Shown: piece after piece, positions 8,182 through 26,361 of the stretch
Numbering within the stretch: position 1 is the stretch's first letter
How the letters are laid out: the number at the start of each line of letters is the position of its first letter
Source: Terriglobales bacterium
GTDB taxonomy: Bacteria > Acidobacteriota > Terriglobia > Terriglobales > Acidobacteriaceae
DNA: 64,000 nt
Assembly: GCA_035624455.1 (NCBI GenBank)
Contig: DASPRM010000102.1
Location: 116-64,115 of the forward strand
Direction: 5' to 3'
Position numbers and translations under genes: made by a program
The notes under the pieces: model-generated
The model's database searches: none
Seen by the model: the letters and a program-made list of their open reading frames with translations, nothing else
Told to the model about the DNA's origin: nothing

Positions 8182-9491
8182 CAGGAAACGGCTCCGTCGC
8201 TGCCAGCGGAGTCTGATTTGGAATTCTTGCGGCTCTTGTCGGAGAGATTAAAAAGGCGCCGCATGACCTCTACGACGGTAGTGGCTTCGGGCTGGCGGGC
8301 GGCGCTCTTCAGGTTGGTGATGGGCGTGTGCATGATCTTGTTGACCATGCCACGCGTCAGGGCATCGATCGCCACTTCCTGCTCGGGAGTGAGTGTGCCC
8401 AGGCGGCTGCGGAAGCGTTCGATCTCGGCTTGCCGAATATCGTCGAGATACTCCTGCAGCGAAAGGATCGTAGGCACCACATCCAGAGTGCGCAAGCGCT
8501 CACTGAAGCGCTCGACCTCCAGGGCCACGATGTCTTCCGCCTTGAGCGCCTCGCGCTTGCGGTCCGAGATGTGGCTGGAAACTACCTGCTGAAGATCGTC
8601 GATATCATAAACGAAGATTCCATCGACATCGTTGAGCGTGGGATCCACATCGCGAGGAACCGCGATATCGATAAAGAACATCGGACGGTTCCGGCGGCGA
8701 GCCATAAAGGCCTCCCCGTGCTCACGGCGGAAGATGGCGTGAGGCGCCCCGGTGGAGGTGATCACGATGTCAGCTTTGTCACAAGTATCGTACAGATCAC
8801 TGAATTGCAGCGCCTGGCCATCGAACCTGCGCGCCATCTCCAGCGCTCGTTCGTGCGTCCGGTTGACGACATAGATGGTTGCTATCCCGCTAGCCAGCAG
8901 ATGCCGGGCTGCAAGCTCGCACATCTTGCCAGCCCCCACCAGGTATACGCTCTTCCCCTTCAGGTCGCCGAATATCTTCTTAGCTAGTTCCACCGCCACG
9001 GAAGCCACGGACACGGCGGAAGAGGCAATTGCGGTCTCGTTGCGCACTTTCTTGGCAACCGCAAACGAGCGGGTGAGAAGAGCATCCAGCTGCGAGTGCA
9101 CAGCGCCGACTGCCCGGGCGATGGCATAGGCTTCCTTCACCTGGCCCAGGATTTGGGGCTCACCCACGACCATCGAATCAAGGCTGGAGGTGACGCGGAA
9201 GAGATGCTTGATAGCCTCCTTCTCACGAAATTCGTAGAGATAAGGTTCAAACTCGGCATGTGGCAGCTTGAAATAATCGGCAACAAAACCCCGCAGGTCA
9301 GCGGCGCCGTTTTGCAGCCCGGCCAGAACCTCAACCCGGTTGCAGGTAGAGAGAATTATTCCTTCTTCGACCCCGGGATAGTGCAGCAGATGTTGCAGAG
9401 CGTCCGGCAGTCGGGACTCGGAGACCGCGAAGCGTTCCCGAATCTCCACGGGCGCGCTTCGATGGTTCACTCCGATGAGCTGCACGTTCAT
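8181..9491 (-). CDS. hemA: Glutamyl-tRNA reductase
   Basis: [22 protein letters not shown] is the HemA N-terminus, and the NAD-binding [13 protein letters not shown] is present. The start is taken at the internal ATG 9491, overlapping the upstream gene's stop in ATGA; the ORF track extends further. Confidence 0.9.
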
Positions 9492-19974: not shown

Positions 19975-20138
19975 TACTCCAGTTCTCGCCCGCCTTCTCA
20001 AGATCTGCAAATCGGTAGTTGAATGGCGAGCGCCAGCAAGCTAAGCTACGGCTGTTGATCCTCCCCCAATCGGCAGTTCCCGCTCCAAAGTCATTCGGCT
20101 CGTAGCTGGAACGCTAAGTCAGATCCGCGAGTTCATTC

Positions 20139-21860
20139 ATGAAAAGCGCGCCTCCGGTTCTAGTGTGCTTCACTGTCGTCTTCCTTTATGGAGCGCTTGC
20201 GACGGGGCAAGACAAACCTGCGACTCAGGGTGCTGTTCGAAGCGCAGAGCAGAACGACTCTGCTCCCCCCCCGACGAGTAATGCCATCCCCGGCTCCAAA
20301 GCGAAGTCAGGCGTTCAGCGCCGGGAAGCGCCACCACGCACACAGGCGATAGATCTGTTGCAACGCAGCCACGCCATCGGCGAGCAACTCCCGCTTCGCG
20401 ACCGGTTGAACACTTTGCAGCGGCAGGTGAGGGCGGCTGCCCGCCTGGATCCCTCTTTGGCGCGAGCCTGGGCCAACGAATTGCTGGAGGCCAGCAATGA
20501 CTTGCCAGATCCCGATGAGAGGGCAGCGTCGCAAGCAGGAGTGGTAGTGAACCTGGCCCCGCGTGATGTTGAAGGAGCATTGGAGATTTTCCGCAGTCTG
20601 CCCGCTTCCACCTCCACTAAGGCCAGTCGCGATCCTCGCACTATGGCGGCTCAGATATTGTTCCCCGCTTTGCTCAACAAAGATGGAGCAGCCGCATTGC
20701 CGACAATCGAAAAAGAAGCGGTGCGGCTGGGCAGTGAAGATGCGTATCCATATTCGGCTATGGGCCAGGTCGCAGTTCAATCCGGGCAGGACCCTAAGTC
20801 GGCCAAAGATGACAAGGATTTGATAACCGATGCGCCACCGCCTAAAGGTGCGAATGCACCGGACGGAAAGCCCCATCGCAGCGGACTGCCGCCGGGTGCG
20901 AGCGTGCCGCGTAAAGACCCGGCGCGGGAGGCTACGGTGCTGCGAATCTGCCGGCAGGCTTTCAGTTACTATGAGTCCAGCACGCGCTCGCTGGCCGGCG
21001 ACCTGGATTTTGCGGACATGATCATGTCGACCTGGCAGTGGCTGCCGGCGGATTTCCTTCGCTCCGCTTTACATACGTCAGCCAACAACCTCGTGGCCAG
21101 TGCGGCCGACTCCGATCTGGAATTTCAAAATTCTTCGGATGCAACCAAGGATCAGAAAGTCCACCAAAACCCGGCCGATCTCGCCCTTGTACAACTGGCT
21201 CCCGTACTCAGCAAGCTTGATCCCGAGGCACTGGAGAAGGTGAAGCAAGCTCGTCCTTTTGTTGCCCAGTCGCTGCAGCCCACCCCGCCAGGCGGAGTGC
21301 CGATGTGGATGACCGGAACCCCTGCTCGCAGTTCGGGAGACGATGCCATGCTTAACATCCAACGCACGGCACAGTCGGATCCCAACAAGGCCCTCAGCCT
21401 GAGCCAGGATCTCACCGATCCCGCCGCCAAGGCGCAAGCCCTGTCAACAGTTGCCAGCGCGTTTGCTGCCGTAGATCCGCAGCAGGCCACCCGAACGCTG
21501 GAGCAAGCCGATAAGTTGACCGCTACAGTCAAAGATAAGGAAGAACAATTGCATCTCGTGATTTCCGAGGCCGAAGCCGCAGCCGCGATCAAGAACATGG
21601 TTCTGTTGCGACAAAGCATGGGCCGGGCGTTCGATCTCGCTGACCAGATTACTCGAGCTGAGGAGGATGCCCGCGCCGAACAAGTAATCGGCTGGAGACC
21701 CCTCATGCGTCTGGTGAACGTCGGCATGAAATTAGAGCCAGAGCTCACCGTCGCTTATATCGACCACCTGAACACTCCAGTGGCTAAAGCGAACTTGCTG
21801 CTGGCCGCCGCGGAGAGCATCCCGTTGCGTCAAGACTCGAAGCAAAAGCCGAATTCCTAG
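20139..21860 (+). CDS. Hypothetical secreted protein (573 aa, Ala/Gln/Pro-rich, predicted helical)
   Basis: There is an N-terminal signal peptide MKSAPPVLVCFTVVFLYGALATGQ. I recognise no domain. It lies upstream of the Cys-rich paralog pair. Confidence 0.6.
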   Translation: MKSAPPVLVCFTVVFLYGALATGQDKPATQGAVRSAEQNDSAPPPTSNAIPGSKAKSGVQRREAPPRTQAIDLLQRSHAIGEQLPLRDRLNTLQRQVRAAARLDPSLARAWANELLEASNDLPDPDERAASQAGVVVNLAPRDVEGALEIFRSLPASTSTKASRDPRTMAAQILFPALLNKDGAAALPTIEKEAVRLGSEDAYPYSAMGQVAVQSGQDPKSAKDDKDLITDAPPPKGANAPDGKPHRSGLPPGASVPRKDPAREATVLRICRQAFSYYESSTRSLAGDLDFADMIMSTWQWLPADFLRSALHTSANNLVASAADSDLEFQNSSDATKDQKVHQNPADLALVQLAPVLSKLDPEALEKVKQARPFVAQSLQPTPPGGVPMWMTGTPARSSGDDAMLNIQRTAQSDPNKALSLSQDLTDPAAKAQALSTVASAFAAVDPQQATRTLEQADKLTATVKDKEEQLHLVISEAEAAAAIKNMVLLRQSMGRAFDLADQITRAEEDARAEQVIGWRPLMRLVNVGMKLEPELTVAYIDHLNTPVAKANLLLAAAESIPLRQDSKQKPNS

Positions 21861-22346
21861 AAAGCGCCGAAAAAGTAATCTCTTGCAGTTCTTGCAGTGA
21901 AGACTCTATGCGGATTCTGTGCAATTCCTTGCATCTGACTGCATAGAATCCGACTAGCCCGGTTTGCTAGTCAGTTTTTCCTGACCGTCGCATCTTGACA
22001 ACATTTCTGTTGCCAGTATGCTCATGGGCGGCTGATGCCATCAGTTGTTGTGCCGTGGCACAGTGAGACCAGTCTCCCCGTCATGCAACAGACCCCTTGA
22101 AGCTCCAGTAAGCGTCTGGGTGTAAGAGAAACAACCCAGGCTAGGGCTATCGAAGCATCTCCGGCCGAACCCCAGGCACTTGGGACCCAAGAGATCCTGT
22201 CCACCCCAACGCGTCACTTCGTGCGCTCGGTGGTGTGCGAACTACAAACAACGATCTCCAAGCCCGCGCTCTCCCCACGCGAGGGTTGGATCAATTCGCA
22301 TGGCGAAATTACGCCGATGTTCATGAATATACCGAGGAGAAAACAC

Positions 22347-22799
22347 ATGAGGAAGCTTGCTCTGGTTTCTGGAGTCGTGCTGCTGCTGTTTGGTCTGGTG
22401 GGAATCGCATGCGCGCAATTGCCTGAGTATTGCCTGTATACCAAGACCAAGATCAGCCCGTCGGTCGCGAACGTAAACGGCAAAGAATCATTTGACGTCA
22501 CCACTCTGACGAAAAGCGTATGCGGCTTCCCGATCTATGAAGGAGTCGCTTGCATTTACGATTCGTTCACTAGCCTGACTCAAATCGATTGTGAGGAGCT
22601 GGACGATTGGGGCAAGGCATACTTCACCGTCCACAAAGGTGAGTACGTGAACTTTTCTGGCTCCATTCCCACGCAGTACATCCAGGGTCGGTTCTTTGAT
22701 GAGGAGGACGTCGTCTGGGAAGGTGTGAAGTATTTCTTCTATCCCAGCATCACCAATCCCGGCACCCTGGTGTGCGTAGGCTGCGCCAGCGGCTTTTAA
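22347..22799 (+). CDS. Small secreted cysteine-rich protein, paralog 1 (150 aa), unknown family
   Basis: The start ATG at 22347 has GAGGAG 10 nt upstream. It has a signal peptide MRKLALVSGVVLLLFGLVGIACA and six Cys in the mature part. The C-terminus is PSITNPGTLVCVGCASGF. Confidence 0.75.
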   Translation: MRKLALVSGVVLLLFGLVGIACAQLPEYCLYTKTKISPSVANVNGKESFDVTTLTKSVCGFPIYEGVACIYDSFTSLTQIDCEELDDWGKAYFTVHKGEYVNFSGSIPTQYIQGRFFDEEDVVWEGVKYFFYPSITNPGTLVCVGCASGF

Positions 22800-22963
22800 C
22801 TAGGGCCATGTGAGAGTTGCCAGCATGCTACTACTACGAACCGTATCGGTCGGCCCAGGCGATTGGAGAAACGGACTCAACCTAGCTTCCAGCCCCCGGG
22901 CTGCCGCAGCGGAAGTTGACCTGAAACGTATTGCTTTGTGCGAAGACATCGAGGAGGGGGAAA

Positions 22964-23437
22964 ATGAAACGAGTTTGTCTGGCTATTGGAATTGTGCTCC
23001 TGCTGTTATGCCTCTCAGGAGCTGCGCTCGCGGTCGATGATGGAGTCTGCTTGTACACAAAGACCACCATCAGCCCCTCGGTCGCAAACGTAAACGGTAC
23101 TGAATCGTTTAACGTAACCACCAAAACGAAGAGCATTTGCGGTTTCCCGGTCGATGTAGGCGAGGTCTGTATATATGACTCGTTTACAAGCCTGACGCGC
23201 ATTACCTGCGATGACGTGGACGACTGGGGCAAGGCATACTTCACCGTCCACAAAGGTGAGTACGCGAACTTCTCTGGTCCCATTCCCACCCAGTATATCC
23301 AGGGGCGATATTTCGATAATGTGGAAGTCTGCGCTCTTGATGCGATCTGTGAACTCACTCCGGTGGAAGAATTCTTCTTCCCCAGCATAACCAACCCCGG
23401 CACCCTGGTGTGTGTCGGCTGTGCCAGTGGATTCTGA
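22964..23437 (+). CDS. Small secreted cysteine-rich protein, paralog 2 (157 aa), unknown family
   Basis: The start ATG at 22964 has GGAGGGGG upstream. It is about 75% identical to paralog 1 in protein sequence, with long identical DNA stretches, and shares the same C-terminal PSITNPGTLVCVGCASGF. Confidence 0.75.
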   Translation: MKRVCLAIGIVLLLLCLSGAALAVDDGVCLYTKTTISPSVANVNGTESFNVTTKTKSICGFPVDVGEVCIYDSFTSLTRITCDDVDDWGKAYFTVHKGEYANFSGPIPTQYIQGRYFDNVEVCALDAICELTPVEEFFFPSITNPGTLVCVGCASGF

Positions 23438-23452
23438 ATCTGGCCGAAACCT

Positions 23453-23480
23453 GGGCCGCCCCGCGGGGCGGCCTTTTTTG
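23453..23480 (+). terminator. Rho-independent terminator after Cys-rich paralog 2
   Basis: A GC-rich inverted repeat GGCCGCCCC..GGGGCGGCC is followed by TTTTTTG. Confidence 0.8.
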
Positions 23481-23561
23481 CTTGGTAACTTCCTTTAGTT
23501 TTGCTTCCCGCCCAGTTCGCCCGCGCATAAGGAGGCAGTTCAGGGTAGAATCTCCGGGCCT

Positions 23562-25412
23562 ATGCGGACCCTCCTCGGCATAATCCTTCTGCTCGCCACC
23601 TCGCTGTCAGCCGAGAAGACTGCTGCCAATCCCCAAAATTGTTCTGCCAACGCTACTTGTGGCATCTCGAAGAAGGACCTGAAACAGGCGCATCGGGCTT
23701 TGGAGCACGCGCAAAAGCTACAGAAAGAAGGGAACCTGGAGGATGCCCTGCAGGCGATGGACGAGGTTGTTCGCCTGGTTCCGCGCAATCTGGAATACCT
23801 CACCACCCGGGAGACAATCAAGCAGGAACTTGTGTCGCGGCACATCGACCGTGCAGGAGAACTGCTGACCGCAGGCAAACGAGCCGATGCGCTAACCGAA
23901 CTGCAGGCTGCCTTAAGGCTGGATCCAGACAACGACCTGGCCAAGCAGCGCGTACTCGATGCCATGCCGCCGTCGGCTGGCGCCTCGGATGCGAATAAGG
24001 GAACCGTTCCCGACGCCTTCTCGGAAGCTCAACCGATCGTCCTGGCGCCGAGTTCCGAGCGCTTGACCATCCATTTTCGAGGATCCTCGCGAGATCTTCT
24101 GCAGCAAATCTGCAATGCCTTCGGCATCAAGCCGGTCTTCGATGACTCAGTGCGAACCCGAGCCATTGTGCAGTTTGATCTGGAAGACGTCGGCTTCAAC
24201 ACTGCCATGGATGCGGCGAGCAAGCTCTCCAAAGTGCTTTGGTTTCCCGTATCGGCTAAAGAGGTCTTGTTCGCTGACGATACACCAGAGCAGCACCGGC
24301 TGTTTGATCGCATGGTGCTGCAGACGTTTTATCTGAGCAGTTCAACCACTCCGCAAGAGCTGCAGGAAATCGCTACTGCACTGCGCTCGGTATTGAACCT
24401 GCGGCTGATTCAGACGGCATCCGAGAATTCCAGCCTGAGCATCCGAGCCTCACAGTCCACAGTCGAAGCTGCAGAAAAATTGCTACCCCTGTTGACCCGC
24501 CCCAAGCCGGAAGTAATGCTGGACCTGCAGGCTTTCCAGATCAGTCACACGCTTACGGAGCAATTGGGAGTGAACTTGCCGTTGCAGTGGCAGGTCATAA
24601 ACCTGCCGTCCTCGGTGCTTGCCCTTTTAGAAAATCCTCAGACGTCAGACCTTATAAATCAGTTGTTCAATTCCGGTGGGATCAACCAGGCTAATTCCGC
24701 TGCCATTCAGGCGTTGCTTGCTCAAGCGCAGAGCCAATCTCAGAATCCCCTATTAAACACTCCCTTTGCCACGTTTGGAGGTGGCCTAACCAGATTTGCC
24801 ATTCCCTTTCCGCCGGCATCGATTCAAGTGCAACTGAATGAGTCCACCGTAAGAGACCTGCAGCGCCTCAGTTTGCGGGCTTCCCTGGGTAACGCAGCCA
24901 CCATGAGGATCGGCAGCCGCATCCCCATTCTCAATACCAGCTTCGCGCCCATCTTCAATAGTGCCCAGGTTTCGCAGGTGCTTGCCAATCAGACCTTTAT
25001 TCCTCCATTCCCCTCCTTCAATTACGAAGACATCGGAATCACGGTGAAGGCAACACCGCTTAGCATTTCTCCCGATGACGTGAGTCTGAAGCTGGAGCTT
25101 CAAGTCAGAGCTGTCACCGCACAAACCGTAAATGGAATACCGGTGCTCTCTAATCGGGAATATGTGGGCAACCTCAGCCTGAAAAACGGCGAACCCGGCT
25201 TTGTAGCCGGAATTCTCACTCAAAGCGAACAGAGAAACCTACAGGGAGTTCCAGGCCTTCATCATGTGCCGCTCATCAGCCAGGCAACCACACTTCATAA
25301 CCTGGAGCACGATACTGACGAACTGATGGTTGTAATCGTTCCGCGAATTGTATCTCGGGCAGACACACCGAACCAGAAAGCCGAAATCTGGCTCCCTACG
25401 GCGTCGAGATGA
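23562..25412 (+). CDS. Secretin family outer-membrane protein (type II/III secretion system / pilus secretin-like) with an N-terminal TPR-like region
   Basis: It has a signal peptide, a TPR-like helical region at about residues 40-130, secretin N-domains, and the C-terminal secretin signature NLQGVPGLHHVPLISQATTLHNLEHDTDELMVVIVPRIV. Confidence 0.8.
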   Translation: MRTLLGIILLLATSLSAEKTAANPQNCSANATCGISKKDLKQAHRALEHAQKLQKEGNLEDALQAMDEVVRLVPRNLEYLTTRETIKQELVSRHIDRAGELLTAGKRADALTELQAALRLDPDNDLAKQRVLDAMPPSAGASDANKGTVPDAFSEAQPIVLAPSSERLTIHFRGSSRDLLQQICNAFGIKPVFDDSVRTRAIVQFDLEDVGFNTAMDAASKLSKVLWFPVSAKEVLFADDTPEQHRLFDRMVLQTFYLSSSTTPQELQEIATALRSVLNLRLIQTASENSSLSIRASQSTVEAAEKLLPLLTRPKPEVMLDLQAFQISHTLTEQLGVNLPLQWQVINLPSSVLALLENPQTSDLINQLFNSGGINQANSAAIQALLAQAQSQSQNPLLNTPFATFGGGLTRFAIPFPPASIQVQLNESTVRDLQRLSLRASLGNAATMRIGSRIPILNTSFAPIFNSAQVSQVLANQTFIPPFPSFNYEDIGITVKATPLSISPDDVSLKLELQVRAVTAQTVNGIPVLSNREYVGNLSLKNGEPGFVAGILTQSEQRNLQGVPGLHHVPLISQATTLHNLEHDTDELMVVIVPRIVSRADTPNQKAEIWLPTASR

Positions 25413-25425
25413 GTCCGCCAGACGG

Positions 25426-26361
25426 CTAGCGGCTTGGCTGAAGTTGCGCCTTTTCCGATCCTGATTGCGCCTGAAAGATCGTGATCTGCTTCAGCACTTC
25501 AAAAGGCGTTCCCGCCACGTTCGCGATCTTGCGGCCATTGATAAAGATCGTGGGCGTCGCGGTCACTTCCAATTCATTTCCCAACGCCTGCGAGGCATAG
25601 ATTCGTTCTGCCACCTTAGGATCAGAGGTGCAGGTGGCAATCGTGTCCGGGTTCAGGCCGGTCTCGCTGACCAACTGCTTCAGGCGTCCTTCCACCTCAT
25701 TTTCGTTAAGGCGCGCGATTTCGTCCTGCCGGTCATAAACCGTATCGACGTATTTCCAGAAGCTGTCGTTGCTCTGCCGCGCAACACACTCGGAATACTT
25801 AGCGGCAGTAAGCGCCCATTTGTGGATTTGGGTCAGGGGAAATTGCTGGAACACCAGTCGCGAGTTCGGGGTTTCGGCAAGCAGCTTCTGTATGATCGGC
25901 TGAGCCCGCTTGCAGGCGGGACACTGCAAATCACCAAATTCTACAATCGTGACCGAAGCATCCGCAGGACCACGCCCCGGCCCATTCATTTTGGCTTTGA
26001 GAAGTTCCCGCGCGGCAAGAAAGGGATCGGCGCCGAAGGGCATCATGTCGGCATACAAAGCGTACTTCTGATCCGGGGTCACATAGAGTTTCAGAGCTTG
26101 CTGGCCCTGGGGGGTCGTCGCGCGGGCATCCACTTCATAAAGCGAGGGATCGGGGGCGGCCTTGATATCCACGACTTCAATCCGCAGATTCTGATCGTAT
26201 CCGAACATATGGTGAAGAAAGGATTCCACCGTTTCTTTCGTGAGCGTTGACGGCGGATGCGGAGCCGCCGCAGGAGCGGCAGCCTTGGAGCTACTCTTGT
26301 TTTGTGCCGAAACGCTGGCGGTAATTAAACAGACCAGGATTGAAAGAATGACTGAGCGCAT
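25426..26361 (-). CDS. DsbA-family thiol:disulfide oxidoreductase (thioredoxin fold, CPAC active site) with an N-terminal extension
   Basis: It has a signal peptide and the CxxC active site in GDLQCPACKRAQPI. It is convergent with the secretin gene across a 13-bp gap. Confidence 0.8.
   Translation of the reverse strand: MRSVILSILVCLITASVSAQNKSSSKAAAPAAAPHPPSTLTKETVESFLHHMFGYDQNLRIEVVDIKAAPDPSLYEVDARATTPQGQQALKLYVTPDQKYALYADMMPFGADPFLAARELLKAKMNGPGRGPADASVTIVEFGDLQCPACKRAQPIIQKLLAETPNSRLVFQQFPLTQIHKWALTAAKYSECVARQSNDSFWKYVDTVYDRQDEIARLNENEVEGRLKQLVSETGLNPDTIATCTSDPKVAERIYASQALGNELEVTATPTIFINGRKIANVAGTPFEVLKQITIFQAQSGSEKAQLQPSR

Follow-up and report, generated by a model that had tools for sequence, protein, structure and literature searches.

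The two adjacent genes described here, A and B, encode small proteins that are most likely divergent stand-alone Big_1-type domains, and not a new fold. They lie in a stretch of 64,000 nucleotides (the window) from an uncultured soil acidobacterium that is represented by a MAG. Taken as a whole, we consider with moderate confidence that A and B are Sec-exported, disulfide-stabilised, single-domain Ig-like proteins of the Big_1 type, which arose from an old tandem duplication. The family is real and very rare, and can best be seen as a new, stand-alone form of the known Big_1-type domain. The positions of all the features discussed are collected in Table 1.

Table 1. Features of the A-B locus and its surroundings, and the lineages that carry the pair. 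Positions are those of the window unless a locus (L001 to L009) is named.
Feature	Position	Strand	Remarks
Variable slot between ymdB and secretin	19975-23561; L007 5264-5968; L008 5265-5999; L009 5486-5794		
573-aa protein	20139-21860	+	signal peptide; no recognised family; same lineage-specific block as the pair
Terminator-like hairpin	21952-21972		3' of the 573-aa gene
Leader region and its counterparts	21995-22346; L004 ~1835-2186; L001 ~8960-9312		
Promoter, sigma-70-like	21995-22022	+	TTGACA-16-TATGCT; upstream of gene A
Putative 5' leader of the A-B transcript	22030-22346	+	~320 nt; non-coding, conserved; contains CAGUCUCCCC
Shine-Dalgarno of gene A	22334-22339	+	GAGGAG
Gene A	22347-22799	+	150-aa precursor
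Gene A, signal peptide	22347-22415	+	predicted cleavage after ACA23
Gene A, Big_1-like Ig domain	~22431-22700	+	residues 29-118
Gene A, identical tract	22608-22647	+	exact 40 nt; codons W88-Y100
Gene A, conserved C-terminal tail	22734-22796	+	FFYPSITNPGTLVCVGCASGF
Shine-Dalgarno of gene B	22951-22957	+	GAGGAGG
Gene B	22964-23437	+	157-aa precursor
Gene B, signal peptide	22964-23032	+	predicted cleavage after ALA23
Gene B, Big_1-like Ig domain	~23048-23317	+	
Gene B, identical tract	23225-23264	+	partner of the 40-nt tract in gene A
Gene B, conserved C-terminal tail	23372-23434	+	
Intrinsic terminator	23453-23484	+	9-bp stem with 8 GC pairs, 4-nt loop, T-run; closes the A-B unit
TPR-secretin	23562-25412	+	616 aa; N-terminal TPR region and secretin domain (PF00263, E 8e-19); downstream of the pair
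DsbA-like gene	25426-26361	-	next to the secretin
Lineage 1 (window)			A and B
Lineage 2 (L004)			P0002 and P0006
P0006, second gene of the L004 pair	L004 2878-3303		141 aa
Lineage 3 (L001, L002, L003, L005, L006)			P0004 and P0005

An earlier note on this DNA had placed here two genes for proteins of 150 and 157 aa, each with a Sec signal peptide, and both open reading frames are present. The two proteins begin with a basic MRK or MKR, followed by a hydrophobic core and an AxA motif (ACA before Q in A, and ALA before V in B), as expected for such a signal. The AxA site is kept in all of the homologues and Cys22, found in A, is not, and the signals are therefore of the SPase I type and the proteins are not lipoproteins. 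Over their full length A and B are 67% identical (BLASTP, E 8e-75), and their mature parts are 74% identical, very close to the 75% or so estimated before. Six cysteines, the number given in the earlier note, are invariant in the five close members of the family (C29, C59, C69, C82, C143 and C146), and the linker of B has two more. Both proteins have the same layout, with a predicted Ig-like core, a linker that is variable in length and in sequence, and a conserved tail, FFPSITNPGTLVCVGC, which is specific to the family and lies downstream of the Big_1-like domain. The 20-residue consensus of the tail is (F/Y)(F/Y)PSI(T/S)NPG(T/S)LVCVGC, and this includes the CxGC pair. Conservation is found mostly in the second half of the proteins, W88-D118 and P133-C146 of the tail being nearly invariant in the five close members. 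Both proteins end four residues past CVGC (…CVGCASGF), with no hydrophobic helix.

A and B are real genes, as seen from the dN/dS evidence of purifying selection and from their conservation in three lineages. Comparisons of the five close members with one another all give a ratio of 0.15-0.27, and those with the divergent P0006 give 0.22-0.39 where dS is computable.

It is striking how rare these proteins are. Searches with A and B gave no match in Pfam, NCBIfam, PADLOC or PHROGs, and the family profile gave none among PDB sequences at E <= 10, so that the description of the family as unrecognised still holds for these collections. Only three proteins besides A and B came out of a word-indexed search over 5.8 billion clusters. 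When the family profile was run exhaustively with hmmsearch on 1.84 billion representatives at 50% identity, four proteins were matched, these being the family's own cluster, the 141-aa P0006, and two giant proteins of 4,085 and 2,136 aa; the family itself makes up two 50%-identity clusters among these representatives. In pattern scans, 185,579 genomes yielded a single species representative, the Terriglobales MAG L005, and one metagenome contig was also matched; no more copies were found in the 64-kb window.

The three known lineages are about equally distant from one another, since the 573-aa protein that flanks the pair is ~70% identical between them. Within the third lineage, the five loci have at least 99% mutual identity in the family proteins and in the leader. 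Gene B is the positional orthologue of P0005 (in L001) and of P0006 (in L004). P0006 is divergent (32-40% identity) and retains the four core cysteines, but its CxGC tail has been lost altogether; its best partner is B (47%, E 1e-15) over A (35%, E 2e-11).

The earlier note had considered a recent duplication or gene conversion to be likely. Conversion is well supported, and a recent duplication can be rejected. dS between A and B is ~1.1 (1.08, with dN/dS of 0.21), compared to 0.62 between A and its orthologue P0002, and each of the three lineages has a tandem pair at this position. Together with the closer similarity of B to P0006, this means that the duplication is old, and that it happened before the three known lineages separated. 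The nearly identical DNA that had been pointed out between the two genes (22605-22650 and 23222-23267) is identical at 44/46 positions, with an exact run of 40 nt, and pS between A and B drops to 0.11 over codons 88-100. The orthologues vary at the synonymous sites of this same stretch (GGC/GGA/GGT, GCA/GCT/GCG, AAA/AAG), so gene conversion fits the 40-nt identity better than a constraint at the nucleotide level, which can be discarded, and the run is a probable short gene-conversion tract. The sequence SVANVNG, which is common to A and B only, all other members having (T/A)VFVN, looks like a second such tract. Read in this way, A and B show paralogues kept partly alike by gene conversion. We also note that the second gene of the pair is partly homogenised with the first in the window genome, but diverged and tail-less in L004.

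In the earlier note the fold could not be placed in any family. The evidence that now places it comes from the two giant proteins, which are the only matches outside the family among the 1.84 billion representatives (E 3.5e-7 and 2e-4), and which the family profile matches through nine and six separate stretches respectively. The two stretches sampled are Big_1/Invasin_D3 repeats according to Pfam (E 1e-28 to 1e-30). Against individual Big_1 repeats, residues ~29-100 of the family fall into one common register, in which the family motifs SP…(V/F)VNG, CG(F/W)P, SLT and DDWGKAYFTV fall on the Big_1 motifs P…A(N/D)G, G-x-P, GSS and D-x-G-x-A-x-F-x-V. MAFFT independently gives the same register and extends it through NFSG…TQYIQGRFFD, corresponding to the F and G strands of the repeat, so that residues ~29-118 are in register with Big_1. 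HMMER, hhalign and MAFFT thus agree on a single register. The hhalign comparison of the mature family to 33 repeats has a probability of 75%, a P value of 2.4e-5 and a score of 33.3. The maximum score for 30 column shuffles of the family is 14.6 and that for the reversed alignment is 16.4, both far lower, and the similarity is therefore not an effect of composition. P0006 also gives a weak match (E 0.017) to Big_3_5, another bacterial Ig family. Homology of the family to bona fide Big_1 repeats is in this way detectable by profile methods. The curated Pfam model of Big_1 (PF02369, gathering score 34.9 bits) gives no match to A or B at E <= 1, and formal membership of Pfam Big_1 therefore fails; the scores of single Big_1 repeats against the family are marginal (<= 12-14 bits).

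AlphaFold was run on the five family sequences alone, giving a pLDDT of 35, and on mature A with 14 Big_1 repeats in the alignment, giving an Ig-like sandwich with a pLDDT of 82.9 and a pTM of 0.77. In the seeded model the strands are at mature residues 8-14, 17-20, 26-34, 44-49, 55-61, 67-72 and 86-94, and there are short strands in the tail at 99-101, 104-106 and 117-121, a region that is covered by family sequences only. The model scores 9.4 against a bacterial Ig domain, 9.2 against an RTX-adhesin BIg, about 9 against MG domains, and 8.3 against both invasin and intimin. Because it was seeded with Big_1 repeats, it shows consistency and is not independent proof of the fold. It could be argued from this seeding, from the pLDDT of 35 for the family on its own, and from the lack of any Pfam or PDB sequence match, that the Big_1 similarity is spurious and that the family has a truly new β-rich fold. 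We regard this as unlikely. The exhaustive search produced Big_1-repeat proteins as its sole matches outside the family, the register was the same from three programs, the hhalign score far exceeds the shuffled and reversed controls, P0006 points to a second Ig family, and the strands predicted with a pLDDT of 35 fall where the seeded model has its strands A to D. We are fairly sure that the core of A and B has an Ig-like fold, and we favour, less firmly, a specific Big_1 ancestry. Strands A to G of the Ig domain are all present by alignment, and donor-strand complementation is hence not required.

The retention of the four core cysteines in P0006, which has no CxGC tail, suggests a pattern of two core disulfides plus a separate C143-C146 pair. 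The four core cysteines and the CxGC pair would form these disulfides through Dsb oxidation, and the tail is predicted to add further β-strands to the domain. One could instead see in the CxGC the active part of a periplasmic metal or redox protein, either a metallochaperone or a thiol-disulfide relay, carried on an Ig-like scaffold. Ig-like and cupredoxin-like scaffolds are common among periplasmic copper proteins, and the predicted fold is compatible with this; none of the five close members deviates from the CVGC, which is located at a flexible C-terminus. However, the paralogue P0006 has no CxGC at all and keeps the four core cysteines, no similarity to metal-binding families was found in Pfam, NCBIfam or PDB sequences, the DsbA-like neighbour is conserved regardless of the pair, and the block contains no genes for metal resistance or transport. 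A metal or redox function is thus very unlikely.

The interval between ymdB and the TPR-secretin is a variable slot, occupied here by the 573-aa gene together with A and B. The secretin itself is widely conserved, with more than 1,400 homologues found at ~45% identity and of about the same length; those with a named source are from Terriglobales. The secretin scores far under the NCBIfam cut-offs for GspD, PilQ and MshL. In three distant genomes (L007-L009) the backbone of ymdB, slot, secretin, dsbA (minus strand) and nadE (minus strand) is kept, and the stretch further upstream (mutS, GH3, anmK, SBP) is present in full in L007 and partly in L008. A HAD hydrolase occupies the slot in L007 and L008, and an unrelated 102-aa ORF on the minus strand does so in L009. 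At these three loci neither the pair, nor any other family member, nor the 573-aa gene was found. The secretin locus is thus kept in distant Terriglobales that have no pair, which means that adjacency to the secretin is not a conserved association, and the link to a secretin that the earlier note implied is not supported. GC content over the pair is ~0.53, and ~0.58-0.60 upstream, which is not a strong anomaly.

In each of the three lineages the pair nevertheless lies directly upstream of the secretin and is read in the same direction, which invites the proposal that A and B are cargo or subunits exported through the TPR-secretin. They might for example form a small surface fibre or be a factor that is secreted, and the C-terminal CxGC hairpin might serve for recognition or cross-linking. 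They are tandem paralogues with a highly conserved tail behind a variable linker, and a DsbA-like gene adjoins the secretin. We consider this to be quite unlikely. The secretin has more than 1,400 homologues, and at the three distant loci inspected the pair is replaced by a HAD hydrolase or some other gene. A and B also lie between a promoter of their own and a strong terminator ahead of the secretin gene, and their signal peptides are of the SPase I and not the prepilin type. No T2SS or T4P parts, ATPase and platform genes included, were found among the annotated ORFs at about 9.5-37 kb of the window, where the other ORFs are housekeeping. The full set of strands A to G removes the need for a donor strand. 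A fused pilotin-like module within the 616-aa secretin is speculation, and a search of the literature on acidobacterial TPR-secretins found nothing relevant.

The 573-aa protein has low-complexity stretches rich in proline and alanine. It has no match in Pfam, NCBIfam, PADLOC or PHROGs, and only a chance match among PDB sequences (E 0.89). Like A and B it is restricted to the lineages that carry the pair, with one homologue in the 5.8 billion clusters and a partial copy in L004, and it may function together with A and B. The boldest reading of the locus would be an undescribed envelope structure in which A and B, perhaps with the 573-aa protein as a secreted helical component, are Ig-fold subunits locked by the NPG hairpin and the CxGC, exported through or docked on a self-piloted TPR-secretin, with a new cis-acting leader RNA turning on their expression. 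We think this highly improbable.

The pair has its own transcription signals. The promoter hexamers TTGACA and TATGCT are the same in all three lineages, and the Shine-Dalgarno sequences are as good as had been thought. As the earlier note also proposed, there is one strong terminator after B (hairpin at 23453-23474, followed by the T-run), which is conserved in L004, and a scan found none in the spacer that separates the two genes; it is plausible that they are co-transcribed up to this one terminator. The spacer between A and B is 164 nt in the window (22800-22963) and ~240 nt in L004 (2634-2877) and L001 (9763-10000), the latter two being 74% identical at aligned positions. Since the other two lineages have longer and mutually similar spacers, the window genome seems to have lost ~80 nt.

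The leader is 70-80% identical among the lineages, which is equal to the coding DNA although dS is 0.6-1.3. It contains no conserved ORF of at least 30 codons in any frame, and Rfam gave no match over 21800-23650 at E <= 1. RNAalifold, applied to the three sequences, predicts several hairpins, with compensatory changes in 9/76 pairs (for example, a stem CCUGGGU…ACCCAGG which is CCCGGGU…ACCCGGG elsewhere), and predicts that the invariant element CAGUCUCCCC pairs with the Shine-Dalgarno sequence of gene A. The fold of the single sequence has no unusual stability (z-score 0.09). The leader may be a new cis-regulatory RNA, three sequences being too few to show it.

From these results we propose the following picture for the Big_1-type proteins A and B. 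They would be expressed as one regulated bicistronic unit, with its own conserved promoter, long conserved leader and strong terminator. They would then be exported by Sec, cleaved by SPase I and oxidised in the periplasm, and would serve as non-enzymatic modules in the envelope or outside the cell. A role in binding or as structural modules is likely, and we hold this with less confidence than the identity of the domain. A and B could act as a pair, or together with the 573-aa protein. On the reading favoured here they represent neither a new fold nor a new secretion system, and they enlarge by one uncharacterised family the already large set of exported proteins that are restricted to particular lineages of soil Acidobacteriota. 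For experiments, the stand-alone TPR-secretin and the conserved leader RNA may be a better place to begin than the pair itself.

Several other identities were considered and rejected. A lipoprotein was discarded: the lipobox [LVI][ASTVI][GAS]C is not conserved, A alone having a cysteine (GIAC) where its orthologues have AFA, AYA, SFA and ALA. The earlier note had stated that the proteins are not pilins, lack SCPU features and have no PEP-CTERM, and this is all correct. For a type IV pilin or T2SS pseudopilin, the signal is of the MRK/MKR-core-AxA kind, there is no G-F-T-L-I-E, and there is no match to the Pilin or N_methyl families of Pfam. For a chaperone-usher or SCPU subunit, no fimbrial or SCPU family is matched in Pfam or NCBIfam, and the neighbours are ymdB, the 573-aa orphan, the secretin, dsbA and nadE. 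For proteins with a sorting signal (PEP-CTERM, LPXTG, MYXO-CTERM and similar), there is no transmembrane helix behind the motif. The C-terminus fits the β-signal of outer membrane proteins poorly, with Ser at position -3 and no terminal GF in P0002. A RiPP or bacteriocin precursor was dismissed in view of the ordinary Sec signal and the absence of modification genes among the annotated neighbours.

Among known systems, the Bacillus proteins Ena1A and Ena1B are alike in being adjacent paralogues of ~120-150 aa with conserved cysteines in a terminal extension and, as predicted for A and B, a β-sandwich fold. The Ena proteins have the jellyroll DUF3992 fold, are not known to have Sec signals, and carry an N-terminal cysteine motif. 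The searches with A, B and the family profile showed no similarity to them, and polymerisation is not indicated for A and B. The match of the model to macroglobulin (MG) domains (alpha-2-macroglobulin, C3/C5) and to generic Ig-like modules reflects a shared sandwich topology only, with no sequence similarity detected, and MG domains are part of multidomain proteins of ~1,500 residues. The closest comparison is with the Big_1/Invasin_D3 domains of invasin, intimin and the giant repeat adhesins. These domains usually occur as tandem repeats in large surface adhesins or inverse autotransporters, whereas A and B each consist of a single stand-alone domain of ~125 residues in a protein of 150-157 aa, which is below every Pfam threshold and is joined to no β-barrel anchor and no LysM or lectin partner domain. 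In contrast to the adhesins, they have four conserved core cysteines, the CxGC, and a family-specific C-terminal extension of 30 residues. If our interpretation is correct, a repeat module of giant adhesins has here become an independent, disulfide-stabilised and tandemly duplicated secreted protein within one narrow acidobacterial lineage.
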